Below are positions 13,126 to 49,000 of a stretch of 64,000 nucleotides of DNA, piece after piece (the stretch's first letter is position 1; each line of letters opens with the position of its first letter). The position numbers were made by a program, and so were the translations under genes. Source of the DNA: Octopus vulgaris (lineage: Eukaryota); contig OX597824.1 of NCBI GenBank assembly GCA_951406725.2, positions 40,548,001-40,612,000 of the forward strand, in the 5' to 3' direction. Below the pieces are notes generated by a model. It did not search any database. It saw only the letters and a list, made by a program, of their open reading frames with translations, and was not told the origin of the DNA.

Positions 13126-13259
13126 TTTTTGTTCATTCAAGTTTTGACAAGAATTCCGTTGTCTTTTTTTTTTCCTTCCTTTTTGTTAACATTATCATTT
13201 ATTGATTTATATTATTTTATCTACTGTTTTTTTTTTTCACTCCATGCTTTTGTTTAGAA

Positions 13260-13284
13260 ATGAAGGACACCAGCCGAGTGCAAG
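13260..13284 (+). CDS. MDM1: MDM1 exon 1 (MKDTSRVQ, phase 1)
   Basis: ATG...CAAG|gtaata; the phase fits exon 2. An AG and pyrimidine tract at 13256-57 mean it could be an internal exon. Confidence 0.6.
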
Positions 13285-19200: not shown

Positions 19201-22200
19201 ACACACATACATATACTTTTCAGTTTCCATCTATCTAATTCACTTATGTGGTGTAGGTCAGCCTGGGGCCACTTGCCTACTGTTCCACACAGTGTGACTG
19301 GGGACACTTGCCCTATGTACCATGCAATGGGACTGAACCCAGAATCTTGTGGTTGGAAAGCAAACTTCTTACCACACAGCTTCGTGTGTGCTGTGTCATA
19401 CTGATTCATCTTGATGATTACACTAAGGAATACATGCCTGTGGAATACTCAGCCACTTTCACATTAATTCAATAAGCAGGTAGTTCAGTTGATCAAATAA
19501 CTGAATACTCATTGTCAACCCCAACAGAAATCATTTATTCTATTTCTTGCTGTATATATATTTGAATGAAGGATTAATTTGAACACTGTTAAATTTTTAG
19601 GTGTGTTGTTTGAACCATGTCTACAAAGAAAGAAGAGACGTGAAGGTCCTGTTACTTGTTTATCAAGTGACTTTTCAGTAAAAGAACATGACTCAAATGC
19701 GGATTATATGCTGCTGGGAAGAAATGATAAGTTTGAAGGAAATATCTGTTATAAACCAAAAAGATATTTCAATATAAAAAAGGTATAAATCTTTAGTTAA
19801 ATATATTCAATGAGAATATTATATACTGAATTTATATTTATACCATTATAGGGACAACTCTTCTGTGAAACGATCGTAAGATGCTTTAAATAATTAATTC
19901 AAAACTTTTAAACTGTCATATACATTATATATTTATACTTATACATATTTACATATATTTTTATACATATTTATATTTATTTATTTATATATTTTTAATA
20001 CAACAATTATTTTTCACACGTGTATATCTTTCTGGGGAGTTTTGATATTGATTTCCTAATATTAATAATTATATATATATATATATATATAAAAGGTATT
20101 GCTTGTTTTAAAATTTTTGTACATTTATTTATTCAATATTAGTTACGTAAAATGTAAGTAAAACTATGTATTCTTCATTTGTTTTTATGTCTGTTTTTCC
20201 ATGCTTGCATGGGTTAACCAAATATGTTGTTGAGACATTGTTTTACAGCTTGATGCCCTCCCTATTGCTAACTCTTAGCTGTTTTCAATGTAAAGGATCA
20301 CTTATGTCAGCCTGGGCTATAGTAGAAGACAGTTACTTGCCAAAGATGCCAAACAGGGGGACTGAACTTTATTGTTTTCTTTGGAAGCAAACTTTTGAAA
20401 CACAGTCATATCAATGCCAAGAAGTTCAAAAATAAAAGTTCCTAGTTTGAATCGTCTCTGGTACATGTACGAATGTCAAAACAGATTAGGCATCTGACGC
20501 TGAGAGTTGCTGAAGCATGGAACAAACTGCTGGCATCGATTGTTAGTTGACGGAGCACTGCATCCTTCCAAACTTCCATGCTTTCTGAGATTCGCCAACA
20601 CTACACCTGATTTTCTCCCCTCCATACACACACAAGCATGTATCTGACTCATACATTGTTCACTTTCCAGACATTTGTACATTACTGCATATACTTTATA
20701 TGCACTTTCTGACATGTTGTGGTGCACCTGAGCACTGTATACAATAATTTCATTATTATTATTATTATTATAATGATGGTTATCAAAAATGTAGTGTAGA
20801 TATAAGTGCTGTAAATATAGAATCTAAAGATAGGATTAGTAATATGGTAAATTCTAGTCTTATTAAGAACTCATTTGAAATTTTTAGGTGTTTAACCCTT
20901 TAGCATTTAAACTGGCCATATCTGGCAAAAATATTCTACTTGTTTTATGTTCAAGCAGGCCAGATCTGGCCTCTCACACTTACTCTACAATATCATTCTA
21001 AGAATTAACAGTTACCTTCCCCCTCTCTCTCTTTCGGAGAGGCACTGAGCACCTACACGTACATATACACACACGGCAGTAACTTCCACCTACCGAATTC
21101 AATCACAAAGCTTCGGTCGACTTGAGGCTATAGTAGAAGACACCTGCCCAAAGTGCCACGCAGTGGGACTGAACCCGAAACCATATAGCCAGGAAGCAAG
21201 CTCCCTAACCACACAGCCATGCCCGACCTCATCAAAATTTCAAAGCTACAAAATAATGCAAGATTAATTCAAAACAATGTGAATAAATAAGCAATGCTTT
21301 TGATAGAACAATGTGAATGTGGAAGGGTTAAACAAAATTAATAATTTTATGAACTTTTATGTTGTTTTCATACCCTTGCTATAACTATTCCCAGAATTAA
21401 TTAATTATTAACTATGTAAGAAAAATTATTAACTATTGTAAGAAAAAACTTTGTAATTTTATATATTTTAATTGTGACTTCTAAATGCTGCTTTTTTTTT
21501 GTTTTTGTTTTTTTAATTAGAAAGAAAATGATGATAACCAGATTCATTCAGAAGAAGACTCCTGTGATCCACATGTAAGTGACGAGTACATACTTCTTGG
21601 AAGCAATGTCAGGTTCTCAGTTAATACCATTTACCACCCAAGGGTGTGTTGGCATTATTATCTAAACTCTGATAATGTCAAATATTTGGTAAGCCTTTCT
21701 AGTTTTTATTTCCTACCTGTGCATGTCATCTAAAAAGGAAAATAAATGGGTTTATTTTCTCTTGTGCATGTCATATGAAGGACAAAGATTGTATCAACAT
21801 CAAGACAGAAATATATAGATAACCAACTATTGCTGTAGAAGATGCTGAATGACCAAATGAATGTAGTATTTCAATAACATGTGTTCTTGGATTCTTTCTT
21901 TTCCCCCTTGACCTAGAGAATTATGACATCACCAGGTCAGCATCTACCTGAAGATGTTTTAATATGGAAATGTCATTTCTATGTATTGATGATGTAACTA
22001 TTTGCTGCATAATACTGATGTCTGTGTGTTTAAGAATCGTGCTTCTCAACCACATAGTTTATGGTCCACTTCCACTCTTTTTCTTTTACTCTCTTTTACT
22101 TGTTTCAGTCATTTGACTGTGGCCATGCTGGAGCACCGCCTTTAGTCGAGCAAATCGACCCCAGGACTTATTCTTTGTAAGCCTAGTACTTATTCTATCA

Positions 22201-25200
22201 GTCTCTTTTGCCGAACCACTAAGTTACGGGAACATAGCGATGTTGGGGGACAAAAACAGACACACAAACACACACTCACATACATATATATACATATACA
22301 TATAAACGACGTGCTTCTTTCAGTTTCCATCTACCAAATCCAGTCACAAGGCTTTGGTTGGCCCGAGGCTATAGTAGAAGACACTTGCCGAAGGTGCCAC
22401 GCATTGGGACTAAACCCGGAACCGTGTGGTTGGTAAGCAAGCTACTTACCACACAGCCACTCCTGCACCTATACAGTGTCTTCTACTTTAACCTCAGGAC
22501 AGCTGAAACCATATGAGCGAATTTGGTAAATGGAAACTAAAAGAAGCCTGTTTTACACACACATGTATGTGTTTGCACTCTACAAAAGTTGCTCACTCCA
22601 AACAGTATTGTTGTCAACTGATTATCTGTTTATTTCACACCTTGGAAGACATGTAAAGCAAAGGATTCCTTATTTGAAAAACAGACAAGGTTTAGTGACA
22701 AGAATGGCAACTGTTTTTAGATATAACTGTACATAAAAACATACATGTGTGTGTGTGTATTCTCTCTTAGAATTGAAGCAGTGTTCAATATAATACACTA
22801 GCAATATTCCAAGGACACTTAATGCTTGTGTCTTAAATCATAACAGAATCATAATATGGAAATGAAGAACCGAGCTAATCTCATTGACTCTGATTTACAG
22901 TGAATGATTTAATATCTGAACTATTTTGGTTTTAATTTTTTTTTGCTCAGATTGAAAACGATCATACAAATGGAACAGTTCCTGCTGATTCCTGTGGAGG
23001 TGTACCACCTGATGAGGAAGAATATATACTTCTTGGAAATCATGCAAAGTTTTCTGATAATATTATCTACAAACAAAAGAAAAGAAGGAACAATATGCCG
23101 AGCAAAAGTGCTGAAACTGAACATGATTTAGTAAGTGTTGAAAGAAACAAGAACTGTTTAGGAAACTGCTGGGTTCCTTTAAGTAACATGTTCACCTTAT
23201 TGGTTGGTCATAATCTTTCTTTCCATGTCATGAGTTCTTAATTTAGTCACTGAGCAATATTTAATTTAGTCTATCCTTAGAATTAGACTCTCTATAAAAG
23301 ACATAACTGGGAGGTTGACACTGATGTATCTAGAAGTAATATAGATTACTTGAAAGATCAACAATTCTTGGTATTAAGCTATTCTATATTAGATTAGACA
23401 TTAGTATCTTTTACATGAACAACAAGCATGAAAATCTCTCAAGGTCACTTAATGCTAAGTTTCACCCTCACTGAGTATCTTGTGACAAACGCATATCTTC
23501 AAGATGGAAAAAACATTCATGAGAAAGACTGGCCTTCCTCTACTTGAACAAAAAACTAGAAATCCTTTACAAAGCTCAGGTAAGACTCACAATGGAGTAT
23601 GACTCCTACATCTAGGATGGTGTTGCTGATACATGTACAAACATTCTTGACCACACCCCAAAACTGCCATCTAATTTTTTTTTTGGGTGTGATGGTGTTG
23701 AGCCAGCTTCTTCTCTGGTCCTGACAGCATCATGAACCATGACGGCCCACGTCCGACGGTCCTGTGCGAAGTCACTGGAGATAGCGAGCCATTCGCGGTT
23801 CCATCTGCGCAGACCTGAGAGGTCCTCGTTTATCGTCGTTGCCCAGGTCTTCAGCTGCCTGCCCGTGCGTTTGTCCCAGTTGGGAAGTGGAGGTAGGAGG
23901 AGGACATCACGAATCAGTTCACCCTCTGGACAATTGGCCACCTAATTGATTAACATAAAGTCATTTATCATTACCTTTCATCTTCTAACCAAAAAACATA
24001 CTGTTTCCACTCTAACTTTTCCTAATATCACTACAGTAGTAGTTCTGACTGAAATATCACCTTCTCTCCTTTGGCTAGGAGGTGACAGTTGAATCAAGAA
24101 CACCTCTTCCAAGCCTCATACTAACCTCTACACTCATTCTACTAGGCCACTGGAATATGTAGATGTTCAAAAATGAAGGTTCCAAACTTGAATCCAGTTT
24201 GAGACATGTATACATCCAAAAATTTAGACATTTGGTGGTGATTAGTGTTCAAAATATTCATCATTGTCCTCATCTAATGTGTATTTCATATGCTGGCATG
24301 GATTGGGTGATTTGAAAGGATCAGATAAGCTGCCAGACTGCATGGTTTCTATAAATATTGTCATCATCATCATCATCATCATCACTACCATTATTTAACA
24401 TGCATATTCCATACTGGTGTGGATTGGATGGTTAAACAGGATCCAATTAACCACAGGACTGCACTAAGCTCCACTTCTGCTTTGGCATGATTTCTATGAC
24501 TGGGCACCCTTGCTAATGCCAACCACTTTACAGAGTGAACAGGGAATTTTTTTTATGGCACCAGCATTAGTAGCATCACCTAGTAACTCATAAGACAAGA
24601 CCCACTGAACTAAGGACTAAGGGAGGTGAAAGTATTATAGACTCTAAAGATGAGATTAATAGCCTGGAAAGCTCCAATCTTATAAAAAGAATTCACAATT
24701 ATGTGAACATCTATATTGTTGTCACCTTGGAGTTAATAGTTCTCTGAATATCTATTGGATCTTCCCATAAATAATGCAATTTTTAAAAAATTTTATTTTT
24801 TAGAATTAAGATAAACAAAGTTCTTTTTTAATCTAAAATATACTCTCCTTCATTTTCTACAATGCTCTTCCATCTAACTGGTAGACTTGCAAGATCCCTC
24901 TTCCAAAATTCATTTGTCCATGATGAAAAATACTCCTCCAGTTCTGTTCTGACCTCATCTACAGAATTCATATTTTTTCCATCCAAATGATTTTGAAGAC
25001 TGTGGAATAAATGATAATCAGATGGGGCAATGTCCAGCGAATATGGTGGACGGGGCATCGTATCCCATTCAAACTGCTCCAGCCTTTAGAATGTCATCCT
25101 TGCTGTATGTGGTTGAGCATTATCCTGATGGTAGAATGCCTTTTGTCTTGAAATCAAAGATGGTCATCTTTCTTTTAGTGCTGACTCAAGCTGCTCAAAT

Positions 25201-26322
25201 TGCTCGCAGTAGATCTCCTTTGTTATCGTTTGGTTTGGGTTTAAAAGTCCAAAATGGACTAAACCTTTCATATCCTACCAAATAGATAACAACACTTTAC
25301 ATAGGTGAAGACCTTCTTTAGTCTGGTATTTCTCCTTTCCCTACCCACTGTCTTTGGCATTTGACATTTTTAGAGAGAACCCGTTTCTCATCACCCGTCA
25401 CTATTCGGTCCAAAAACAAAGTTCATTCATGAGATGTGACAGCAAAGAAGAGCACACATTCACTCTCTGCACATGATTAGACTCAGAAAGTTTGTGCAGA
25501 ACCTATTGACCCAATTTATTGACTTTTCCAATGGCACGCAGGTGTCGATGAATGGTTGAATGACCAAATCCAAGTTTCTCTGCTAGTTCTTCAACAGTTA
25601 CAATAGGATTTGTTCTACCAGGGTTTGCAGGATGTCCTTGTCAAGCTCTACAGATCTTCCAGGACAAGGCTCGTCTTCTAGGCTGTAGTTTCCGGTTCAG
25701 AATTTCTGGAACCATCATTGACACTGACTTATGCTTATTGTCTGATCCCCATATACTGCATTAATATTCCTTGCACTTTCCATTGCATTGTTGCTTTTAT
25801 TGAACTCATAAAGCAAAATATGCCAAATATGCTCCTTTGTCACTTCCATTATAGCTTTGAAAAAAATAACTGTTAAAATCGAACTGCACTCTTCAAAACT
25901 TGCACTAAGAATAAGTACAAGGGAAAATTACTACCTGCTTTTATAGCAAGTTGATGCAAGTAGTTTATCCCGCCCCCTCCAGCTTTTAGTTCGTGCAATT
26001 TAAAAAATCACATTATTTATGGGAAGACCCAATATAATTGTTTTCATTCTCTCACTTAAAGTACTCTCTGTCTAGGTTGTTTGTGTCAGCATGATTATGT
26101 ATTTATGTATACTGAGTAGGAATGCTAAATGTTGCGTTTATTTTGAAATTAGAATGAAAATGATGACATCAAGAAACACACAGAGGAAGATTCCTGTGAT
26201 CCACATGTAAGTGATCAACACATACTTCTTAGCAGTAATATATCAGGTTTTTGGTTAAAACAGTTCACCACCCAAAAGTGTGGTGTTATTTATATTTTAA
26301 TTATAATGAAGAAGGCAGCAAT

Positions 26323-26368
<46 letters not shown>

Positions 26369-29300
26369 AACAGTGGTGCCCCAGCATGACTGCAGCTTTG
26401 GAGCTGAAACAATTTAAAGATATATAGCCACATACAGGCCTACATAATTTTAAGTTCACTCACACATATATTCATACACATTCACACACCCTTTCCATAT
26501 ACATGCATGTGCTTGCACATGCTAGTTTGGCCAGGATGACATGTTACTATCTCCCTTTCACTCAGCCTCTTTCTTCCAGCTATTTCATCATGTTGAACCT
26601 TTAATCCCTACACATTTTTTTCTTTCTCTGTTGTTTTGTGTTTTCTCTCCTTTTTTTCCCCTCTCAATGCTTTCCGTTGAAGAGCATAGGCTTGAAACAT
26701 CAAAGACTTTTCCATTCTTCCCAAGCATCAAATTAATACACCTGTTTGTTGTTCCTTCATCTGTCCTTGTCTTTCGTTTTCTGTAAATTTGAACTATATG
26801 TATATATATATATTTATGTAACCTTTTTGTTCAGTTTGAAATGATTTGTACAATCTAAATTCTAGTCTGGATATATTTTCATAAAAATATAATTTTTATG
26901 ATCTGTTTTGAAAGTTTCAACATGACTATTATCTCTTTTCAGTTAAATCAAGCAATGATTGTTATTCAATGTAATGTCTACTTCCTGACTACATCTTTAA
27001 CTCTATTCACTTCTTTTTTCACTTCCTGATTTTACAAAACACTCACACAAAACTACATGTTTGTGTTGTTGAATTCTTTTTCTGTTTTGTGTTATTACTT
27101 CCATTCATGTTAGTGTTGTTTAATACAGGAGTGTGTGATTGAATCAGACTATCTAAGATATTTTTGTTGTTTGAAAGAATAGGATATAATTATAAGGAGA
27201 TTTGGTTGCAATTTCTAACACAACGAGGGACCATATCAAAGCTCTATCATGAAGTGAAATAATTCAACTAATTCAGTTAATGAATAACATCAGTATTAAT
27301 GGTTTCTAATTTAGGCAGATGGAGAGAAGAGGATTAATTGATACCATCAACCCCAGTACTTGACTGGTACTTTATTTTATCAACCTTGAAAATATGAAAG
27401 AACAAGTTGACCTTGGTGGGATTTGAACCAGAAACATAAAGTGTCAAAAGAAAGACCACAAAGCATTCTTATCAATAATTTAATGATTCTGACAATCCAC
27501 TGCCCTCAGTACATCATTAATAATGCTATTTTTAACAATAATGATTTTAAAAACAGTCCTGTGACAAGATTTGTTTGATGGAAACTGAAGGAAGCCCATC
27601 ATACACACACACACATTTGTAATGTATGTGTCTATTTAAACCTTGTTAGCCTTTTGACCCCCTGCCTATCACATCTGCTGTAAGTAACTCATATCCACTC
27701 TCTGTACAAACAATTGTAATTCAGTCTATTACAAGCAGCAGCTAATTTTCCCTTATATTTCACCCAAGTATCTTACATTAGGAAAGAATATACTGGCAGT
27801 GTATATCTCACTCATTGACTTATAGTCTATGATTGATTAATGTCTCTGATTTAGAACAAGTGATTTATTAACAATTGTTTATGTCTATTCTTCTGGTTTT
27901 ATAATTTTTTTTCTCAGATGCAAGTGGAAAACATTGAAAAAAATCATACAAATAGAACAGTTCCTGTACATTCCTATGGAGGGGCAGTACCTGATCAGGA
28001 AGAATATATACTTCTTGGAAATCATGCAAAGTTTTCTGAAAATGTTGTCTACAAACAAAGGAAAAGAATGAACAATATGCTGAGCAAAAGTGCTGAAATC
28101 GAACGTGATTTTGTAAGTGTTGAAAGAAGCAAGAACTGTTTGGGAAACTTAGGTTCTTTTATCTTTTACTTGTTTCAGTCATTTGACTGTAGCCATGCTG
28201 GGGCACCACCTTGAAGGGTTTTAGTCAAACAAATTGGCCCCGGGAATTTTCTTTTGCGGCCTGGTACTTATTCTATCAGTCTCTTTTGCTGAACTGCTAT
28301 ATTACAGGGACATAAACACACCAACACCAGTTGTCAAATGGTGGTGGGGAACAAACATAGATACACATACATACACAATGGGCTTCTTTCAATTTCCATC
28401 TACTAAAGCCACTCACAAGGCTTTGGGCTTTGATCGGCCTGAGGCTACAGTAGAAGACACTTGCCCAGGGTGCCACACAGTGGAACTGAACCTGGAACCA
28501 TGTGTTAGGGAAGCAAGCATCTTACCACATAGCCACGCCTGTGCCTATGCAAGTAATATTTTCATCTCACACATATACATGCATGCACAATGGGTTTCTT
28601 TTAGTTTCCATCTACCAAATTCACTCACAAGGCTTTGGTTGGCCTGATGCTATTGTAGAAAACAGTAGCCCAAAGTCCCATGCAGTAAGACTGAACCTGA
28701 AACCATGTAGTTGGGAAGCAAACTTCTTAACCACTCACCTGTGCCTACACATACACGGTCACACTTTCTGTTACTTGTTTTCTGCCATTTTCATAAATCT
28801 ATTTACACATTACAGTTGTTATATTTCAGAAAATGTGTTTATAAATATTCAAAATTATTTGCATTTTTTTTAGGACAAAAATGAAGACCAATATCCTGCT
28901 ACAAAGGATCTAAAACCAGCTCCTGTTGTTGATACAAGCAAATTTGCAAAATCGTCTAAGGCTATAATGTTGGACAATTTGAAATCAAATGAAAAGGTAT
29001 TATTTATATGATGCTTTTCTATTAAAATTATTTGGTGTCTGTCTCTACTTCCTTCCAGGTGCAGAAACGAACTAGCTGAAATAGCAAACTTACACATAAT
29101 ACATACTGAAGCAGTGAGATAAATTGTATAATATATACTGAAAGATTCATTTGATATACTGATAGTACATCTACATTCCATTGTGTGTGTGTAGATTATA
29201 ATTATTGTCTTCTTGTCTTAACATTGCTTGATAATTGTAAACAAATGTTACCATCATGCAAGTGGTGCCTTTTGTCCTGAGTCTTCTGTCTGGTTATGGG

Positions 29301-30865: not shown

Positions 30866-33800
30866 TTAGCGTCCGCTTTCCATGCTAGCATGGGTTGGAC
30901 GGGTCAACTGGGGTCTGTGAAGCTGGAAGGCTTCATCAGGCCCAGTCAGATCTGGCAGTGTTTCTACGGCTGGATGCCCTTCCTAACGCCAACCACTCCG
31001 CGAGTGTAGTGGGTGTTTTTTACATGCCACCTGCACAGGTGCCAGACAGAGCTGGCGAACGGCCATGAACGGATGGTGCTTTTACGTGTCACCGGCACGG
31101 GGCCAGGCGATGCTGGCAACGGACACGAACGGATGGTGCTTTTACGTGCCACCGACACGGGGCCAGACAGAGCTGGCAAACGGCCACGAACGGACGGTGC
31201 TTTTACGTGTCACCGGCACGGGAGCCAGCCGAGGCTGGCAACGGACGCGAACGGATGGTGCTTTTACGTGCCACCGACACGGTTGCCAGACAGAGCTGGC
31301 AAACGGCCACTCTGTTTCCTAATAACACTGTTACCTTGGACAAATGGAGATGCTGTAAGATAGCAAGGATTCTTAGCCTTGTTGGGAGCAATGCAACCTT
31401 GTTCGCCACCTTTACCCTATTTTTGCACCTCATGCTCTCTTCTTTCTCTAGTTCATCTTCTGTCATTGTGTTGTCTCCTATTCACCCTCTTATTACCTTG
31501 AAAGAGTCATATTACCTTGAAAGAGTAGGCATCTGTGAGTCTCAAGAGACCATGGATCTGTGCTCAAAGAAATTGTGTCAGCTGCTGATGGTGGTGCAGA
31601 GTCTCCTGTGGCTGTAGAGACCCAAACAGGGGTGGCAGTCATGCATACAGCGACTGCATTTGAAGCAGCTCTCTACCGGCACTACTGGTTTTTATTTTTG
31701 TCAACTGCGCTTTTCTTTGGTGGCAAGTTCCTCTTTCTCTTCCCCTCGCTTCATCTTCTTTCACAGTATTTGTCTCCAGCGTGGATGATCATTTACAACC
31801 CCGTCCCATCTCAGGACGTCCAGATCTATTGATTTCATATCTCTCTTGCAGATGTCCTTGAAGTGAAGATGAAGTAATCTTCATGCTCTTGTGCCAGTGG
31901 CCAATTCCCCATACAAGAGGTCTTTTGGGCTCCTTCCATCTGGCATGCGATCTACATGACCAAGCCAGCACAGATGGCACTGCTGAAGCTGGGTGAATGA
32001 AATGGGTGTCTCGGTGTAGTTGAGGACTAGTGTTGGTGATGTGGTCAGTTTTCTTGATATCCAAGATGTGTCTCAAATTACAAGGGCAGAAGACATTGAG
32101 ATGCCACTTCTCTCAACTAGCCTTGAATGAACAGAGACAACACAAAGTTGCATGGATTCTTTAGTATTGCAGGATACACAGTAACCTCACTTGTGACAGT
32201 GCCACAATAAAATGCATCTTGTACATACTGTAACATACTTGGCAAATATAGTTTTCTTGAGGTTGTGACAATCTATCTAGTGCTGGTACTGTGATCAGAT
32301 ACATCTAGTACACTCAGTAAAGTTAGTAATTTTTCTGTGAATCTGTGAATCCCTCATGTTTAAACTCACAACCAATTATTTGATGTTCATATATTTAAGG
32401 GTGAAGAGATAATGTGTCCAGAAAAATCACCAGTCAAGAAATCTGTAATGTTTGAAACTTACTCACAAAAAAACCTTTCAGACAACGAAGAGGTTAATAA
32501 ACTTTATTTATTTATTTATTTATTTATTAATATGTAAGTTTGTAGAAACATAATTTCTTTATTGTTTCCATCCCATGTTTGTATATAGGTGCAGGCATGG
32601 CTTGCTTCCCAACCACATGGTTCCAGGTTCAATCTCACTGTGTGGCACCTTGGGCAAATGTCACTCATTTTGTGATGTAGCAGGCCTCTCGACTAATCAG
32701 AGCACACCTTACATCCAACATCCAATTCTCAGCGAAGACACTTGAAAATTGTTTTCTTCCATTTTTTTCATTTCTGTCACAAAATACACATGAAAAAGTG
32801 CTCAAAACCTTTCATTAGGAGTAATAAAAGGATTGACCACATGGACAAGAACAAGAGGCATAAATTCCATAGGAATAAACATTCAAAAAATGCCAAAAAG
32901 CAGTAATTTGATGACTTTTCTTCTCCAAGTTTATCTGCTGCAGAACTTGGCTCATCAACCAATATTGGTGAAAAGTGCTAATCAATTACATTGACCCTAG
33001 TGCACCAAAGATATTTTACTAAATTCTTCATCATTTTCAAAATCAACTGAAATAAATGCAGTGAATTTCAACAGAAATATAATAACAAATGGTGTAATGA
33101 CAATTCTAAAGTTTCTATAACTTGATAAACATATTCTTTTGATTCTGATTCAGTAGAATGATTAGAACAGTAAAAACATTTTGTGTGTGAGTGCGTGGTT
33201 ATGTGTACATTTTTCAGAATGTTGTCTTGTTAAGAACTTAAAATTCATAAGATTAAAACTTAGTATTTTTTCTGTGAGCCTACCATGTTTAAATTCATGA
33301 TTAGCTCTTTTGATACAGACGTACACAAGACCACCCTGGTTTAATACAAACGTCTTGTTTTAAACTGATCTAAATTAAAACCTTCAATCAAGATTTCACA
33401 TTAATTTATGTTCCAAACACCAGCTTAGTAACAACAAAGTTATATTACTAAATTCCAAATTAATTGTAACAACAACAGTGTATGTTGAAAGAAATATGGT
33501 AACAAAAAGGGTTACTCGTTTAATATTTATGTATTTAAGGTTGAACAAATAGTAAACTCAGTGAAATCACCAGTCAAGAAATCTGTGATATCAGAAAATT
33601 CCTCACCAAAAAAACATTCAGACAATCAGGAGGTTAGTAACCTTATTTTTAATCTCTCCTCTATCATATTTCTTACTCCCATCACTCTTGATTCTCGTCC
33701 AGTATTCCCATTTTTATCACACTCTTGCTCTGGTTCTCTTCTATCTCTGTTGACACTGTTGTTATTAACAATTGCCATCAGCTCAAGCCATATACAGTGA

Positions 33801-34010: not shown

Positions 34011-37000
34011 GTGTGTGTGTGTGTGTTTTTTTTGTGTCTGTGCTTGTCCTGCCATCATCACTTGACAACCAGTGTTGGTGTGCTTACATCCCCATAACTT
34101 AGCAGCTTGGCAAAGAGACCAATAAAATAGGTACTAGGCTTAAGACATAAGTCCTGGGGTTGATTTGTTTGACTAAAACCCTTCAAGTCAGTGCTCCAGA
34201 ATGGCTGCAGTTAAACGACTGAAACAAATAAAAGAATATATATATGTTATACATAAATGGCAATTTCTGTCTGTCTAATCTGTCTATCTACCTGTCTGTT
34301 ACCATCTTGCTGCCTACACTGGTGAACCAATCTTGATGAAACTTTGCATACATGTTAAACTAACATCCAGTTGAATTATAGGTTAATTGGATTTCGTGCA
34401 TAGGAAAGAAGCAAAAGGAGGGTGGATTAGAGTTGTTTTTCTTTGACCATAAAATGTGAGGCTGAAAAGATAGTAGCCTAGAGCCTACAGTGCAACTGCT
34501 CAATTTGTAGAGGGTGGTACTTTCCAATATGTCAACAGGAACTTAGCCATATGTTTACAACTGCTGAAAATTTTGGATCTAGAATTCAGCAGTGTGGTAG
34601 AGTTCTTAGATCTGGAAAGGATTTGCGTTCTTTCAGTTACGCATAGCTTACATTCTTTTGATTTGTTGACATATGGTGTGGATTTTTCAACTATTTTCTA
34701 GTTTCCATTATTTATGTTATTTACATTTGACAGATATTTGTCCTGATCTTGTTTGTTGTTAACGTTTTGGCTGATGTACTCTCCTGCCTTCATCAAGTGT
34801 CCTGGGGGAATTTTGAACCTGGGTTCTCATTCTTAAGTTATTTTTCTGATATTATTGTTATTATTCAGGTCACTGCCTGGAATCGAACTCGGAATCTTGG
34901 GGTTAGTAGCCTGTGCTCTTAACCACTATGTCATATGACCGTGGGAATAATAATAATAATAACTATAATAACATCAGAAAAATGCCTTAGGAATGAGAAC
35001 CCAGGTTCAAAATTCCCCCGGAACACCTGATAAAGGCTGGAGAGTACATCAGCTGAAACGTGTTAACAACAAACAAGATGAGGACAAATATCCATCAAAT
35101 GTAAATAATGTACATAATTCCTCATCTCTCAAATATAGAACTGTATTTTCCAGTTTATCGTATGTGATATGGTGTTAGCCATCAAACCCCATACATGGCT
35201 AGCCAACTTAGTAGCTTTACTTTTGTCCTTGTGTTGGAATGAAGGTATGTGATTAGCATAGCGATTTTTGCTCACCTTTTCTTGCTTTTTCTCTTATCCT
35301 ATTGTCCTATATTTAGCTTGTTATGCCATGTGGGCAGTGTCTGAAGATTGTGCTAAGGCACCAGACATGTTAAAAATACTGTTGGTATGTTTTCATCACA
35401 TGAAACTAAAAGTAGCACAAAGAAACATATATTGTGTTTATTAAATAATAATTATATACACACATACACAATGCCTTGCATATTTATTTAGTCTTGATAT
35501 GTTCCAGTAGATTCAAATGTGAATAAGCTAACCACTGTTGTGTTTGTCACAGAAGAACACCTTTTTTATGACAAATATGTGTTCATAATACACTAAGTTC
35601 ATTAGCACATAAGATTCTTAGGACAGCCATTGTTTTGACATCTTTGTAACTTGTCAGCCAGAAGCACCCTCAGAACAATGAATTTAACAAGAGTTGATGG
35701 TCTTATTTATAATTTCAGCCAACTGTTTGCTGATCCATGCTGATATCTGCCAACTTTGTCATGTGCACAATGAGCAAAGAGATTCAAAGTGATGACTTGC
35801 ATATTTATTCTTAATATGTTCTGATTGATTTCAATGTGAATATACTAATCATTGTTGTATTCATCACAGGAGAACAGCCTGTTCTTTATGGCAAATATGT
35901 GTTTATAATGTATTCGATTCATTAGTACAAGGAATTCTGGGACAGCTGGTGTTTTGAACTGTTTTTTTGGGTGTACTCTAGGGTAAAGGAGAGAATCTTC
36001 TTGCTAAGAATTCATGTTCCTTTTGTTTAGCAAAGTGAAAGGTGTATAGTATTAAATTTCCTTATACAAGTGCAGGAGTGGCTGTGTGGTAAGTAGCTTG
36101 CTTACCAACCACAAGGTTTCAGGTTCATTCCCACCGCATGGCACCTTGGGCAAGTGTCTTCTACTATAGCCTTGTGAGTGGATTTGGTCGACGGAGACTG
36201 AAAGAAGCCTATCGTATATATGTATATAGATATGTTTGTGTGTCTGTGTTTGTCCCCCCAACATCGCTTGACAACCGATGGTGGTGTTTTTACGTCCCCC
36301 GTAACTTAGCGGTTCAGCAAGAGAGACCGATAGAATAAGTACTAGGCTTTTAAAGAATAAGTCCTGGGGCTGATTTGCTTAACTAAAGGCGATGCTCCAG
36401 CATGGCTGCAGTCAAATGACTGAAACATGTAAAAGAGAAAAAAGTATTAAATTTTCTTTCATTTAATTTTTCATTTAATCATAAGTATTTAATATATGTA
36501 GCTGCTATTTCAATTTAGCTGGATCTCATCAGTACGACTTAGTCAGTGATCTAGGTTTATTAAATGTAACATTATATTAAATTTAATTTTCAACATTATA
36601 AAAGGAGTGCAAGAGGAGTTGGAAAAAGAAGGAAGAAAGGAGAGAGAAATTCTTATGTAATTACATTTTTTAATGACAGGGAACAGAATTGACCAATTGA
36701 GAAACCAAATGTTCTTTTCACATTCATGTTTTTCCTATTCTATAGTTTTGTTTTGTTTTTTCCCCACACCAGAAATTACTTGGATTGCTCTATAGATCTG
36801 GCTTAGGTCCGCCTAGAAGTTCTGCAATAAGGTCTTCAGAATATCAGAAAAACTTCACAGCGAAGAAACCTTTGAAAACAGATTCTTTGGTACAAAAACC
36901 TAAGGTAACTTTTCCCTTATTTAAACTTGTTCAACTATTTCATTGTTTTATAGCTTTTAAATAAATCATCATCATCATCATCTTTACATCATTTTCATCA

Positions 37001-40000
37001 ACATCATCATCATCATCATTATTATCATTATTGTTTTAACATCCACTTTTACATGCTTGCATGGGTCAGAGCCAGATTTTCCTGTTGCTAACCCTCACTT
37101 GTTTCCAAGCCAGGTAGTATTTTCCCCTGGCTGGATATGTTTACATGGAAGGGTGGAAATAAATGATACCACTTGTATGACATAGACTCTTGCTTACAAT
37201 TCTGATATGATGTAAAAATGAGGAAGCACAAACACATGTACACACATATATGTCACACTCACACATATGCACACATCTAGGAAAGGCTTCTTTCAGTTTC
37301 CATTTACCAAATCCGCTCATAAGGCTTTGGTCAACCTGAGGTGACAGCAGAAGTCACTTACCTAGGATGCCTTGCAGTTGGACAGAACCCAATGCCACAT
37401 GGGTTGGGAAGCAAACTAATATGTGTAAAAAATGTGCCACTATGATACAAATGGTGGCCTTCATTTGCAGTCATCTGTGAAAATGTCCAGCCATGGGGAA
37501 ATAATACCTTCCTTGGAAGCAGGTAAGGGTTGGTGACAGGAAAGGCATCTGATAAAAGGAAAATCTGTCTCAACAAATCCCATCTGACCCATGTAAACAT
37601 GGACAAGCATCATAAGTATCATAATTTTAAGGGAGTGTCATTTTGTTTAAATTCTAATCTAATAGGCGCAGGAGTGGCTGTGTGGTAAGTAGCCTGCTTA
37701 CCAACCACATGGTTCTGCGTTCAGTCCCATTGCATGGCTCCTTGGACAAGTGTCTTCTACTACAGCCTTGGGCTGACTAAAGCCTTGTGAGTGGATTTGG
37801 TAGACGGAAACTGAAAGAAGCCCGTCGTATATATGTATATGTATGTGTGTGTGTCCGTGTTTGTCCCCCCAACATCACTTGACAACCAATGGTGGTAAAT
37901 GTTTGTGTGTCCGTGTTTGTCCCCTCAACATAGCTTGACAACCGATGCTGGTGTGTTTACGTCCCCATAACTTAGTGGTTCGGCAAAAGAGACTGATAGA
38001 ATAAGTACTAGGCTTACAATGAATAAGTCCTGGGGTCAATTTCTTCGACTAAAGGCAGTGCTCCAGCATGGCCACAGTCAAATGACTGAAACTAATAAAA
38101 AAGTAAAAGAGTAATACCACACTAATTCAGGAGAAAGCAACAGTGCTCATAACCATTGTGCCATTAATTTTGCTCTGTTTAAATTGTTACAGGTCAAAAC
38201 CTGCAGGAAAGACATGAATGGGGAGGTGATTCCAAAGGATTGATAATATTAGGGAGTAAGAATTGGACTTAGGTGTTGGTACAGGGCCAGAAAAATTAGA
38301 TGCAACAAGAGAGATGAAGGGGTCAGAGGTGCCTGAGTGGTGAAGGAATGAGACCAACCAGTTCCAAGAAGCAGAAGCAATATAGTAGCAATAGAAAAGA
38401 CAGAAAGAGGAGACAGCATGTCCATTAAGGATTGAATTCCAATCTGTTAAGTGGACCTTGTCTGGACACTGTCCAAGATGTGTGTGCATGCATGCGTATA
38501 GTACCTGCAACATCCAGAGGTCAAAGCCCCATTTCAGGCCTTATTTGAATTTTATAGGATGTTGGGGACTGAAATAGTTTTGTCCCTAAAGAGAAGGACC
38601 AGTTTATGGAATGTTTTTCTTAGCTATGGTAATTAAGTGTTTTTACCTAGAGAAATCCTTGGTGACATTTAAAGTGACTATGAGGGTTCTAGCTGAGTGT
38701 TGTACATGTTTACAGGAGTTATGATACAGTGGTGTTTTCTTGATATGAATAGTCCTTGAAACACATAGCATATTACAGTTGGGTCTTTGACTTCAGTGGA
38801 ACCCAATCATTGATATACTCTTTACTCTTTTACTTGTTTCAGTCATTTGACTGCGGCCATGCTAGAGCACCACCTTTTAAGTCAAGCAAATCAACCCCAG
38901 GACTTATTCTTTGGAAGCCTAGTACTTATTCTATCAGTCTCTTTTGCCAAACCGCTAAGTTACGGGGACGTAAACACACCAGCATCGTTTGTCAAGTGAT
39001 GTTAGGAGGACAAATACATACATATATACGACAGGCTTTTTTCAGTTTCCGTCTACCAAATCCACTCACAAGGCTCTGGTTGGCCCGAGGCTATAGTAGA
39101 AGACACTTGCCCAAGGTACCATGCAGTGGGAATGAACCTGGAACCATGTGGTTGGTAAGCAAGCTACTTACCACACAGCCACAAGCTTCTGGGCAGAATC
39201 ACAATCAAGTTTTGGGAGGTATAATTTTTAACAACTAGCAGCTGCTGTTATGCTCTACACACATTACCTGGTAAAATGTTGTAACGTATTGTGTATGAGA
39301 TAAAAAGGATTAACTGACATGCATCAACCTGCTCACCTTTCACATGGAGAATTAAAATCTTTCAGGTCAATAGTAGTAGTAGTTTATAATCGTATTACTT
39401 GTTTAACCCAATTCTTTTTTTCTTCTTTTTTCATTCAGAACCTTTTTCACTTAGGCAACCATTTTACTCAAGCCCCTTCTCAAAATGATTATGTAGTAAA
39501 AATGTCAGAGTATCAGAGGAACTTTTGCAGCCCGCAATCTGAGAAAAATGTCTGCTCTACTGCATCTACAGTAGAAAATGAATATTCCTCTGTGAAAAAA
39601 ATAAAACATCCACGTAGAAGCAAGTCAGTGAGTTCTAAGAGAACTGAAAGGATAGGTGCATTGGCAAAATCAGAGTCAACTGAAGATGTATGCCCCAGCA
39701 AAAAGACATCCTCACAACCTGTTAAGAATAAAGAAAAAGACATAAAAAAAAAGACATCCTCACGACCTGTTAAGACTACAGAAAGTTTGTCAACAAAATT
39801 AGAAACCAGTGGACCAACATCATCAAGAAGAACTGAAGACAGTGACAAAACTGAGCCAAAACATAAGGTTGGTTGCTTAATCTAGCTACTTTTCAATTTT
39901 ACTCCGGAAAAACTTCCTCATCTCCTTCCTCCTTGTACCAGATAACATGAATAAAATATTATCTCTGGCTAAATATTGCAGTTAATTTGGCATTCTGTAT

Positions 40001-43025: not shown

Positions 43026-46000
43026 GATTTCTTTTAGAGCTTTAATGTCTGAATACCAGAAAAACTTCAATTCGCCCTCATCATTTTCTTATGTTAAAAA
43101 TGCCTGGATAAATAAGGAACCAGAGGTAAAGTAACCTTCTCTACTGTTAAATACTGTTGGTGTATTTAATTTCTCTTGTATTATGTAAGATCATAACTTT
43201 AGTATAAAAAACGGAATAAAACTATTTTCGTTTTAATGTCAAATTTGCAATACTTATTCCTTAACAAGATAATTAGATAAATTATTCTAATTAACCATTA
43301 ACAATTACTATATCATCCATTAATACTGGTTTCAATTTTTGGCACAAGGCCAGCAATTTCAGAGGAGTGTGTAAATCGATTATATCAACCCCAGTACTCA
43401 ATTGGTACTTATTTTATTGATCCTGAAAGGGTGAAAGTCAAAATTGACCTCAGTGGAATTTGAACTCAAAACATGAGGATAGATGAAATGCCTAGTGGCA
43501 TTTTGCCTAGCATGCTAATGATTCTACCAGCTCACCATCTTATATCATCTATTAATATTAACAATTTGAGTAATTTTGAAAGTATACTTTTGTCATCATA
43601 AGTAATTTGATAAAAGTTAAATTACAATTATTTTATGTGTGCTATATTTCCTGATATTAGCCATGATGGCAAAAGTATATTAATATTATTGTAGCAATTG
43701 TGGTGTTATATTCACTTTGAACAGTTTGTTGTTGTTTACTCCCTCTTTTCCTCCTACTCCCCTGTCTCTATGATTCTTTCTCTGAGTATGTGTTGCCTTC
43801 CTTTAGCCATTGCCTGCCACCAAGCCTAGTATGTTCACTCATCATACACCTCTTATGTTAACTCACTCTGTATCTCTTTTATTCTCTCTCTCTCTCCCCA
43901 TGTCTATACAATGTAAAGAATGACTGGAAACAACCAATGTAAAGTGTGACCAACTAACATCTATATTGGCCATTATTAATAATGGAGATACATATGTAAT
44001 ATGCATATCTTCATCATCTTCCTCCCCATTTAACATCATTTTTTTTTTCTATACTGGCATGGGTTGGACAGTTTGAGACAGAAACCACTGAGTCAGAAGG
44101 CTGTGACGAGCCCCAAATTCCAATGTCTGCTTTGGCGTGAACATGCACCGCCAGCCCTCAGTCAAAATCGTCCAACCCATGCTAGTATGGAAAGCAGATG
44201 TTAAATGATGATGATGATGGATCTATATATATATATATATATATATAAGAAAATAAGAAAATAGAGAACAATAGGTGGTTCATCAACTTTTAGACATTAT
44301 ATTATGTTAACTTACTTATTTATTTATATACTAAACTGATAATTACAATAATGTACATACATATAACATATTATTCTTTACATATATAAGATAGAAAATA
44401 TAGTAATATATAAGGATACCAGTAATTATTATAAAAAACATGAATATAAATTGGGAAAATAACTTACAGCTGTTTCAGCCAATAGATAAAAATACCTCAT
44501 TCTACCTTTATTACTCAAGTGGATTGAAATAATAGGTAGATGAACATGAAGTACTTGTATATATCTCTAGGCATCGTCAGAGATTATAAAGTACATAATG
44601 TTAAGTTATAAGAAAAAAGAGATGACAAAGGAATAAATGCTCATCCTATGAACTTCATTAGCTTACAACTGTTTCTGCTATAAGATGCTGTGGACTCATA
44701 GTTGAGTGTCTGAGTAATTCCTTATCACTTCATGTTTGAGGCTCTGATGAAGCTATAAGTTGTTACTCAGGCACATTGCTATGAGTCCACAACATCTTAT
44801 ACGGGAAGAACTGTTTGGTACTTAAGTTCATAAGATAATCATTTATTCCTTTCTCATCTCTTTTTTTTTTACTACTGCTCTATGCTTGACTAATGCTTTA
44901 TTCGGAAGCTTATGTATATTGAGTACTACACCATGTTATTAGTATCGCAGTGCCTAAGCCAAATATCTATACATATGTTTTGAGTGTATCATCTGTCACA
45001 AGAAACTGTTTCTTCCATCTTAATAAGGTACCAACTGAAGATATATCATATGAAGACTGGTACAAGCAGGTGCTAGAATTACGTGAAAAGGCGGCACAAT
45101 ACCGGCAGAGAGCGTTGGACTCTCACTTTTGTTCAAAACATATGGTACAGCTGATATCAAAGGAAACAGAAAAATGGGAAAATTGTAGAAAATTGTCAAA
45201 TACAACAATTGATCCTTCTCAGATGAAACCAGCAGGAATAACTTATTATCCGTAAGTGATTTGTTTTATGATATCCCTTTTTTATTACATCATCATACAG
45301 ATATCTGTATTTATCAAATCATCATACCAATATCCCTGTTAATCATATCCTCATATAGATATCACTATTTATCACATTTTCATTGTTATTTGAACACCCA
45401 CTTTTCCATGCTTGCATGGTTCAGACAAAACATGTTGCAGCAGTTTTTCTACCTCTGGATGCTCTTCCTATCTCCAACCATCACCTGTTATTAAGCTATA
45501 TAATATTGCCTTTAGTCCTTTTGAACAACAAAAGCTCAATAGGTGGACAACCAGTATGCAAATGTCAACACTAAGCAAAGACACAAACACACATATGCAC
45601 ATACTTATACTCACACACTTATACATCCATACATACTTACCATCATCATCATCATCATCAATGTTTAACATCCATTTTTCCATGCTTGAATGGGCCAGAC
45701 AGAATTTGTTGAAGCAGATTTTCTATAGTGGATGACCTTCTCTTGCCAACCCTTACTTTTTTCCCTGCTAGGTAATATTTTACCTTAGAAGTCAGGAAAT
45801 GAGCAGCATTGCTTGCATGATAGAGATGCTCATTTTCAATCATCACTTGATGTCAAGACAAGGATAAACACAAACAAACTTTGCACACACACTGGGCTTC
45901 TTTCAGTTTCTGTCAACCAAATCCACTCATAATAAACCTTACAGTTTCTGACTTCCATTTCACTCCCAGAGTATTGGTTAGCCTTGGGCAGTAATAGAAG

Positions 46001-49000
46001 ACATTTGCCCAAGATGTGATACAGTTATTATGAACCTGAAACCACATGCTTGCAAAGCAAACATGTTAATCAAACCACTAGACCTACACATCTATTACAG
46101 ATTCTATTTTCTGCCTTTATATTTCTCTTTTCTATTCTGCTCTGTGTCTTAACAATGAAAATAACTCAACCTGTACAATAGTCTCCAGTTATTTTAATTC
46201 TGTTACAAGTCAGTCTGTGTCTGTTTCCTCTGCTGTTGCTACTATGAAGTAAGTTAGCTAATGAAGAAGGTTCTTTTAATTTAATCAATGTATAATACAA
46301 AGACGTGTAAAAGAGGAGACAGAGATCAGCAATAAGTTGAGTAAAGAAAGATAGCAATAGTAGCCAAAAGTGCATGCATAGCATGCAAAAGAAAGTGCAA
46401 AGAGACAGAAAAGTGAACAGTTATAGATTCATAAAGAGAAAAGTGTATAGAAGTACATCAAAAATTGTGTTAGCAAATTTCAGGAAACATGAAATTTTTG
46501 AAGAATGCTGTGTCTTGTCAGCTGACAACTGATATAGGTAGTTTATTCCATTCTTTGACAATTCTGAAAGCAAGGAAATGTTTCTGAAAGTCATGAATGC
46601 TAAAATAATTTTTGATTTTGTAAGCATGTCTAAGAGAGGTAGAGGTATTGAATTTTAAAAAATGGGTAAAGAGTTGTTGGAAGGATGGTGGATAATTCTA
46701 TGGGCTTCTACCAAGACAACTGCCAGGCATCAAAACTTTAGTGTATCAATGCCCAGAGAAGCAATATGTTCAAGATATGGTGACTGTTGGAGGATATTCA
46801 TTTGGTTGCACACCTCTGGATTGATATTCTGAAGAAGATGGGGGTTCTAGACTGGAGATGCAAACTGTGAGTGTGGACATGCCATAGCCATATACAGCCT
46901 TAAACAGGTAGTTAGTGACTGGCTAACAAAGGTCATACTGAGTATTAGACTTTGATGGGCTTTAGAATAGTATATTATGAAAATTGACAAGAAGAGTAAG
47001 TTCTAAAGTGAAGCAGGTTTTGCAAGAAATCATTATACTTTTTCTGTTAAATGTATCAGAGGAGTAGATTCATGGCAATAAAGGAAAAAATAGAGATTGG
47101 TCTAATGGAACACTGGGATTAGTGTAGAATCATAGATTTGGGGAAGCATAAAGAAACTTTAGTAATTAATAAAAAGATTGAGTCACAGAGCTTAAATTCA
47201 TGAATAAGCCGAAACAGGCTTATTGTCTTAGATATGAGTTCCTGAAAAAGAACAATATAAATTAATATTCTTTAGTATTATTTTGTGACAACTTCATGTT
47301 CTTATACCAGTTATTCTGTTCTTCCAGGCCAGAAATGTTTTCTTTTAAAAACAAAAATAAATTCAGAGGTTTATCACCAAGTGCCAATAAAGAATGTAAA
47401 ATTGTGTTAGAAGAGGTTGAAGAAGCATTAGTTCCTGGTAACAAGCATTCTAAATTGGTGAAAGATGATGACGATAATCACCAGGATATAAAAGATCAAG
47501 AATATGACAATGATGCTGGGAAAACTGAGACACTAACAATCAGCATAGAGGAGGAACAGAATTTAGATGGAAATGAAAATGAAAACCCAGTAACTGATAA
47601 GGAAGAAACTGCTGATATACGTGTGGTAGAATCAATCACTGAAATGATGAATAAAAATGGTTCAAGTTGTCCAAATGGAACAAAGAGAAGAATTATGAAG
47701 ACAAATCATTTACAGTTACCCAAAGGAAATAACTCTGAATTATCAATTGAATACCAACCTTCGCCTACAACGCCAGTCAGTGATAATAAATTGAGTGATC
47801 AGATTCAACAAATAGATGAAGATCTGATCACAGAATCTAAATATTTTAATAAAACTAAATCAGATCCATCAAAAACTGAAAACAAAACTGAAAATGATAA
47901 GTGCCATATTGATGCTGATGATGAGTGTAAGTATCGTTTAATAAATTCTTCTTATATAGACAATTGCTGTTAATTAATGTGTTGGAATTTATACATTCTA
48001 GTATCTTTCAACTTTTCTTTTTATCATTCCAGTTTATCATCTAGATTTGGCTTCCAAGGTATCAGAAAATTATCGAAAACCAAAGCAAGTTTTTAAAGTA
48101 AGTTAATATTACAAGGATTTTTAATATTTGAATTTAATATATTTAAGAGGTGTTGAACAGCAGAAATGGAAGAACAATACATTAAACCCCTTGTAGTATT
48201 TACTCTCTTTTCTTTATGTTCTGAGTTCAAATCCTTCCTAGTTTTGCATTGTCTTTAATCCCTCTAGGACTCAGTACAGTAAAGTACCAGTTGATATATT
48301 GGTGTTTACCCACATAGAGAATGTGTGGAATCTGTTTATGCTATAAATTAATATTTAGGCATGGCTTTGTGGTAAGAAGCTTGCCTCCCAACCACATAGT
48401 TCTGGGTTCAGTCCCACAGTGTGGTTCCTTGGGCAAGTGTCTTATACTAGAGCCTCAGGCTGACCAAAGCCTTGTGAATGGATTTGGTAGATGGAAACTG
48501 AAAAGAACTCTGTCATATATATGTGCATGTGTGTCTTTGTGTTTGTTCCACACAACTGCTTGACAACTAGTGTTGGTGTGGTTACACCTCTGTAACTTAG
48601 CAGTTTGGCAAAAGAGACTGATAGAATGAGTACCAAGCTTAACAAAAAATAAGTACTGGGGTTGATTCATTCTACTAAAAAAATTCTTCAAGGCTGTGCC
48701 CCAGCATGGCTGTAGTCTAATGACTGAAGCAAATGAAAGACAAATACTTGCTGAACCCTGTAGATAAAAATTAAGTTCCTAAACAGCTGTTTAGGTAATG
48801 TAATTTAGATCCAGTAGAAAGCATTTCTCTTTCCTGATATTGCTGTAGAAGGAGGTGGGGCATCTTTTATGCTGTTTCACAAGAAACCAATACATTTCTT
48901 CTTTTTCTATAAAAACCAATTTCAACACATTTCATTGGTAATTAAGGCAAACATTTTGGGTGACAGACTTAAACTATCACATGAGTGCCCTTAGAGGAGT

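Follow-up and report, generated by a model that had tools for sequence, protein, structure and literature searches.

An apparently undescribed short motif in three intact copies in octopus MDM1 that may add attachment points on the microtubule wall of centrioles and axonemes

The + strand of a 64,000-nucleotide stretch of the Octopus vulgaris genome (contig OX597824.1, positions 40,548,001 to 40,612,000; hereafter the window, in whose numbering all coordinates are given) carries octopus MDM1 (SAXO6). An exon at 45028-45252 matches the Pfam family PF15501 at 47 bits against a cut-off of 27, a second downstream exon matches it at 17.6 bits, and three of the Mn repeats of the form [ST]EYxxx[FY], of which the MDM1/SAXO6 definition asks for at least two, lie at 36836, 39505 and 43048. 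The O. vulgaris MDM1 model (P0009), which itself scores 59.5 bits against PF15501 at the same cut-off, is 100% identical to 10 of 11 tested exon segments of the window and lacks the eleventh, the long extension of exon A, while a profile of the four motif exons retrieved Octopus MDM1 models only (4 of 265 candidates). The Pfam and model matches thus bear out the gene name given by a first-pass annotation, made from the letters of the window alone, which had also claimed five functional copies of a repeated motif, spread through this gene by serial exon duplication.

All five related segments are where that annotation placed them, at 19702, 21584, 23020, approximately 26216-26277 and 28002 (Table 1), but only four score and only three are intact. 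The scoring profile was built from 22 non-cephalopod copies only and is hence not circular; it gives exon 2 28.0 bits, B' 27.2, B 18.0 and A 14.5, where the best score in 20 codon-shuffled windows, the control for the motif profile, was 6.8 bits. The segment behind exon A' yields no profile score, even when read with X across its 2-nucleotide (nt) insertion. Judged by its sequence, octopus MDM1 has three intact copies (exons 2, B and B'), a degenerate copy whose inclusion is optional, and a dead one. Outside MDM1, searches of the species' own genome, of low sensitivity, gave nothing better than E 0.77.

Table 1. Exons, motif copies and conserved repeats of MDM1 in the window
Feature	Position	Strand	Remarks
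First coding stretch MKDTSRVQ-G	13260-13284	+	Start of O. vulgaris and O. sinensis models
Exon 2	19601-19782	+	EPxxQRKK block and motif copy 1 (19702-19755), ancestral motif position; 28.0 bits
Exon A, two in-frame donors	21521-21688	+	Short form ends 21574, long form 21688
Degenerate motif copy of exon A, long form only	21584-21637	+	14.5 bits
Exon B, intact motif copy 23020-23073	22951-23130	+	
Exon A', duplicate of short exon A, without motif	26153-26206	+	
Motif remnant behind A' donor, intronic, frameshifted (+2 nt)	26207-26277	+	52/69 nt identical to A; no profile score
Exon B', intact motif copy 28002-28055	27918-28112	+	Duplicate of B with common intron flanks
Exon C	28874-28996	+	Second conserved short block PAPVVDT
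Exons D0 (32400-32492) and D (33540-33632)	32400-33632	+	Duplicated pair without motif; D0 alternatively included
Exon with first retained Mn repeat, SEYQKNF at 36836	36773-36904	+	Positional match to repeat 2 of other animals
Exon with Mn repeat SEYQRNF at 39505	39439-39867	+	
Exon with Mn repeat SEYQKNF at 43048	43039-43125	+	Weak Pfam MDM1 match
MDM1 core exon	45028-45252	+	Pfam PF15501, 47 bits

Which of these copies reach the protein is decided by splicing, and the junctions rest on public gene models and transcript-size contigs. NCBI isoform models are usually based on RNA sequencing; the 12 models examined comprise five from O. sinensis, one from O. vulgaris and six from O. bimaculoides. 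Because a canonical donor (CAT/GTAAGT) stands at 26206 ahead of the motif remnant of exon A', the remnant is intronic; this donor is the sole one used in models containing the exon, and 0/12 models include the remnant. An identical donor ends the short form of exon A at 21574, upstream of its motif, which reaches the protein solely via the long form, present in 4/5 O. sinensis, 0/1 O. vulgaris and 0/6 O. bimaculoides models. The long form ends at 21688 (TTG/GTAAGC) in the models and not after YHPR, as first drawn; a third in-frame donor between the two, at 21643 (AGG/GTGTGT), was considered and dropped, being used by 0/12. Farther downstream, the motif-free exon D0 is a cassette exon, found in some models of all three Octopus species.

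The copies of exon B arose by duplication at the DNA level, as had been proposed, because B and B' have intron flanks in common: the exons are 88% identical, 35/38 nt of the downstream intron are identical, and the upstream flanks also align. The A/A' alignment covers 145 nt at 78% identity, and the introns between the exon pairs otherwise have only dispersed repeats in common. We considered a single duplication of one A-B block and find it doubtful, as synonymous divergence is unequal between the pairs (3/35.5 sites for B/B' vs 4.5/8.3 for A/A'; Fisher p = 0.015 on rounded counts), a difference that may reflect two duplication events or later conversion.

The motif spans 17 residues, with the consensus [DE][YF]xL[LI]Gx[QN]xKFxxNVxY[RK] across 22 single-copy sequences; the G, the F and the last Y are invariant in all 22, and L6 and K12 are kept in 21. 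Among 16 single-copy proteins its window reaches a conservation of 0.67, against 0.67 for the EP block, 0.69 for Mn repeat 2 and 0.375 for the median column, and ranks eighth among non-overlapping windows. The earlier claim that the motif is better conserved than the linkers stands at the depth of coleoid divergence: between Octopus and Sepia, motif identity is 0.61-0.78 and linker identity 0.19-0.22, with shuffled linkers at 0.20-0.26, and between Sepia and the cuttlefish-like protein P0006 the values are 0.72-0.94 and 0.26-0.29. In shallower comparisons motif and linker are statistically indistinguishable, both between O. vulgaris and O. bimaculoides and between B and B'. For the latter pair, nonsynonymous differences per site (pN) are 0.069 for the motif (3 changes) and 0.158 for the linker (16 changes), numbers that are too small for a test.

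To place the motif among animals, a whole-protein profile was run against 1.84 billion representatives, giving 507 matches at E <= 0.001, the best 150 of which were examined. The motif profile built first, on 14 copies in 7 proteins, recovered additional copies scoring 10-36 bits, where the best of 3,360 shuffled sequences reached 5.8. With the refined profile, 21 of the best 150 of 507 have one copy, four have three and 125 have none; among the copy-less proteins, 54 carry an EP-like block followed by 80 residues or more, and 71 are fragments or show no recognisable block. Organism names rest on 20 proteins. A single copy directly after the EPxxQRKK block is found in 13 named mollusc, annelid, brachiopod and nemertean genera, namely Liolophura (a chiton), Solemya, Pecten, Saccostrea, Haliotis, Patella, Elysia, Pomacea, Lingula, Lineus, Owenia, Capitella and Ridgeia. 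The refined profile did not find the motif in the orthologues of the echinoderms Asterias and Antedon, the amphioxus Branchiostoma, the fish Kryptolebias and Trichoplax, and the flatworm Macrostomum has a partial look-alike in the same position that falls below profile scoring. As an aside, the Ridgeia model P0022 fuses a receptor tyrosine kinase to MDM1, probably through an annotation merge.

The proteins with three copies are those of O. vulgaris, O. bimaculoides and Argonauta, the Sepia pharaonis cluster (P0018, P0023) and the cuttlefish-like P0006. They form one clade in a quick tree (Shimodaira-Hasegawa-like approximate likelihood ratio test, SH-aLRT, 99), in which P0006 groups with Sepia; no nautiloid protein was identified among the best 150 of 507 matches. 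Given their lengths (917 residues on a 3,554-nt contig and 873 on a 2,956-nt contig), P0018 and P0006 are very probably spliced transcripts. On this sequence evidence the motif is an old single-copy element of lophotrochozoan MDM1 with a constant position, and the multi-copy state is restricted, in the sample, to coleoid cephalopods. The first-pass idea of a lineage-specific inserted module accordingly falls for the motif itself, which is widespread in Lophotrochozoa, and survives for its multiplication, which is not found beyond coleoids in this sample.

The gain in copies goes together with a loss at the N-terminus. In 6/6 coleoid proteins the EP block is preceded by just 12 residues, without an Mn repeat among them, so that the N-terminal Mn repeat 1 (human residues 9-21) by which MDM1 is also defined is lacking; by a loose pattern, an Mn-like repeat precedes the motif in 16/22 single-copy proteins vs 0/6 coleoid ones. 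As to the copies themselves, octopod copies 2 and 3 are closer to each other and to Sepia copy 3 than to the decapod-type copy 2, and the degenerate copy of exon A lies 47 residues past copy 1, where the gap between copies 1 and 2 is 49 in Sepia and 52 in P0006. This spacing, with the resemblance of the octopod copies, suggests that exon A holds the old second copy, which would have been sidelined by a new donor while exon B, the exon of copy 3, was duplicated. Similarity alone leaves the origin of exon A unsettled, with a best score of 68 to Sepia copy 3 and 52-53 to the decapod-type copy 2. We have high confidence in the general evolutionary anatomy of the octopus MDM1 motif. Much more tentative, and in our view rather doubtful, is the broader proposal that the lophotrochozoan motif is a new lumen-binding module and that coleoids traded Mn repeat 1 for two further copies and then held the number at three by turnover. 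If that proposal is true, such turnover, in which one copy is spliced out and decays as another exon is duplicated, would point to binding at a fixed stoichiometry in the centrioles or axonemes of cephalopods.

Several other features of the gene deserve mention. Since the start codon lies in a 27-nt exon (13258-13284) with an acceptor of its own, a non-coding or unrecognised exon must lie upstream; Mn repeat 1 is not present ahead of the EP block in this exon. Each of the five coleoid lineages has the PAPV[VI]DT[SQ]K block of exon C, 52-54 residues beyond its final motif copy. The chiton carries the block twice, Solemya and Haliotis also have it, Capitella has a similar version, and of 23 proteins checked the other 15 did not show it. 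The intron downstream of exon C holds a tandem array of units of about 61 nt (31038-31309), with similar units near 51200. A further block, RHHLDRTTP, among the most conserved windows of other lophotrochozoans and retained in cuttlefish-type proteins, is missing from octopod MDM1 (window 47329-47925; proteins P0005, P0002 and P0009).

What might the three copies do? AlphaFold2 gives no fold for the three-copy region (predicted local distance difference test, pLDDT, 53; predicted template modelling score, pTM, 0.16), which is accordingly predicted to be disordered, linkers included, as first supposed, and the motif probably orders on a partner. The vertebrate context makes the microtubule wall the most likely one. 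Vertebrate MDM1 binds microtubules via its Mn repeats, at least two being needed for co-localisation, and a four-repeat mutant still partly pellets with microtubules, so that other sequences contribute (PMC4626064). MDM1 is classed as an Mn-repeat inner protein, and the known lumen-binding repeats are short aromatic or glycine patches (PMC10973386); it also cross-links to the lumenal S9-S10 loop of alpha-tubulin (PMC13087473). Localisation to centriole and axoneme and microtubule binding have been shown for vertebrate MDM1 only (PMC4626064, PMC13087473).

The reading that we prefer, with a rough probability of 0.52, is that the three-copy motif folds on the microtubule wall of the centriole or axoneme and adds attachment points. 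Each copy would be under selection and would act as a short linear motif, becoming ordered as it docks on a folded surface; that surface would be the microtubule lattice, either tubulin itself or a junction of tubulin with another protein. Three copies would thereby give coleoid MDM1 extra points of attachment, and these additional copies may compensate for the missing first Mn repeat. The microtubule lattice as the partner, a choice drawn from context, has about an even chance of being correct. A prediction of one motif copy in complex with octopus alpha- and beta-tubulin (the alpha sequence with an in-frame intron, the beta sequence divergent and intronless) scored 0.00 in two runs against a mark of 0.34 and speaks neither for nor against the lattice. 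A sequence search of the PDB returned no solved relative, its one match at E 0.72 being rejected as chance, and the best ESM Atlas entries, MDM1 clusters at 0.83 and 0.82 and an apicomplexan subpellicular microtubule protein 1 at 0.76-0.77, are all under the bar of 0.9 and serve as leads only. A required phosphotyrosine was rejected, as F replaces Y in 8/22 single copies. The same genome contains, at L014:1495-2781, an intronless open frame for a divergent beta-tubulin, possibly a retrogene.

Several observations weigh against this reading, and some of them favour its competitors. The human residual microtubule binding cannot stem from the motif, because vertebrate-type proteins are without it. 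The loss of Mn repeat 1 and the gain of copies fall on one branch, a single event, and an upstream exon for the repeat was not found in the window plus 20 kb upstream, by a scan of limited sensitivity that missed the Mn repeat 1 of Capitella. The copies are irregularly spaced, 49-85 residues apart, unlike tight lattice repeats of about 31-40 residues. Such spacing needs no lattice if the motif instead docks onto some folded protein other than tubulin in the centriole or axoneme, for example a WD40 scaffold or an inner-junction protein, with three copies gathering several partners; any folded partner would suit a motif of 17 residues that lies in a disordered chain and keeps G, F and Y invariant, and MDM1 belongs to an interaction network with POC1A/B (PMC11564547). 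The human contact with POC1, however, joins a C-terminal segment of MDM1, another region of the protein, to the POC1 coiled coil (PMC11564547), and every short MDM1 repeat that has been functionally mapped binds microtubules. We consider this the most serious competitor, and still an improbable one.

Less likely again is that a single copy is functional and that the extras are tolerated and stem from exon duplication, which would be frequent in this disordered and alternatively spliced stretch. The nearby pair D0/D, with 75% nt identity, common flanks and no motif, tells us that exons can be duplicated in this region without an adaptive cause; the copy behind A' is dead and that of A degenerate; one O. 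bimaculoides model (X3) has two copies, and O. sinensis X4 and X5 are without B', so that gene models skip B or B'; and over whole exons B vs B' has a pN of 0.13 and a synonymous value (pS) of 0.085, with no sign of purifying selection and with too few sites to judge the motif by itself. Yet all three copies keep 0.61-0.94 identity where the linkers have reached or neared the shuffled level, three intact copies are kept in 5/5 coleoid lineages, and the A' copy, gone from the messenger RNA, has decayed relative to A (52/69 nt identical) where the B/B' motifs have not (51/54; Fisher p = 0.006, although the two duplications need not be equally old). Very unlikely, in our estimation, is that the motif is an extended LC3-interacting region (LIR, or Atg8-interacting motif, AIM) that docks ATG8/GABARAP and ties MDM1 to autophagy or the turnover of centriolar satellites. 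The sequence definition ([WFY]xx[LIV], acidic residue upstream, predicted disorder) fits 30/34 copies; the stricter xLIR pattern matches 17/34, and the exchange of Y and F at the aromatic position (14 vs 8 of 22 single copies) suits a LIR. LIR-like cores are, however, frequent by chance in hydrophobic strands, and the strictest conservation (G, K, F, N, V and Y) lies beyond the four-residue core. The ATG8 genes of octopus turned up as separate exons only.

MDM1/SAXO6 is a protein of the centriole and ciliary lumen whose loss causes human retinal dystrophy (PMC13087473) and which has hitherto been described as having no conserved elements other than the Mn motifs. A second element, conserved like an Mn repeat, is present in annelids, brachiopods, nemerteans and molluscs, with extra copies in octopus and cuttlefish. 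It offers a short, testable peptide with which to look for a binding site of a new kind on the wall of the centriole or axoneme, and the octopus locus is a compact, single-gene case of motif gain, loss and alternative splicing. There is no direct bearing on human disease, vertebrate-type proteins being without the motif. In the text of the literature on MDM1/SAXO6, molluscs and cephalopods, tandem exon duplication in cephalopods, and microtubule inner proteins, with few subscription journals among it, a description of the motif was not found; a paper on MDM1 evolution (PMC5033493) uses the word 'motif' 0 times, and alignments in the figures or supplements of PMC4626064, PMC5033493 and PMC10973386 could show it. 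Pfam has no match on the motif exons, and in 7/7 matching proteins (9 scanned) the stretch that fits PF15501 best begins on the downstream side of the motif. We conclude that the motif is real, strongly conserved and apparently undescribed, and that it reached three copies in coleoids via exon duplication.

Set beside known systems, the octopus gene is the same as MDM1/SAXO6 of PF15501, a disordered protein with short conserved repeats, and keeps three Mn repeats and the core; vertebrate-type MDM1 has no copy of the motif, whereas coleoid MDM1 has three and lacks Mn repeat 1. The motif is separate from the known repeat, as was first supposed, since it lies outside the best Pfam stretch and 0/34 copies match [ST]EYxxx[FY]. 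LIR/AIM elements share with it the acidic residue and [YF]xx[LI] core, and the motif has ten more strongly conserved positions after that core; in the MDM1 literature examined, no ATG8 link is described. Another parallel is with the microtubule inner protein modules PYG, GFG, SNYG and NWE, likewise short aromatic or glycine-rich patches, some of them repeated (PMC10973386), whose signatures match 1, 0, 1 and 0 of the 34 copies, respectively. Those modules span eukaryotes and have cryo-electron microscopy support (PMC10973386), whereas the MDM1 motif, known by sequence, is apparently limited to Lophotrochozoa.

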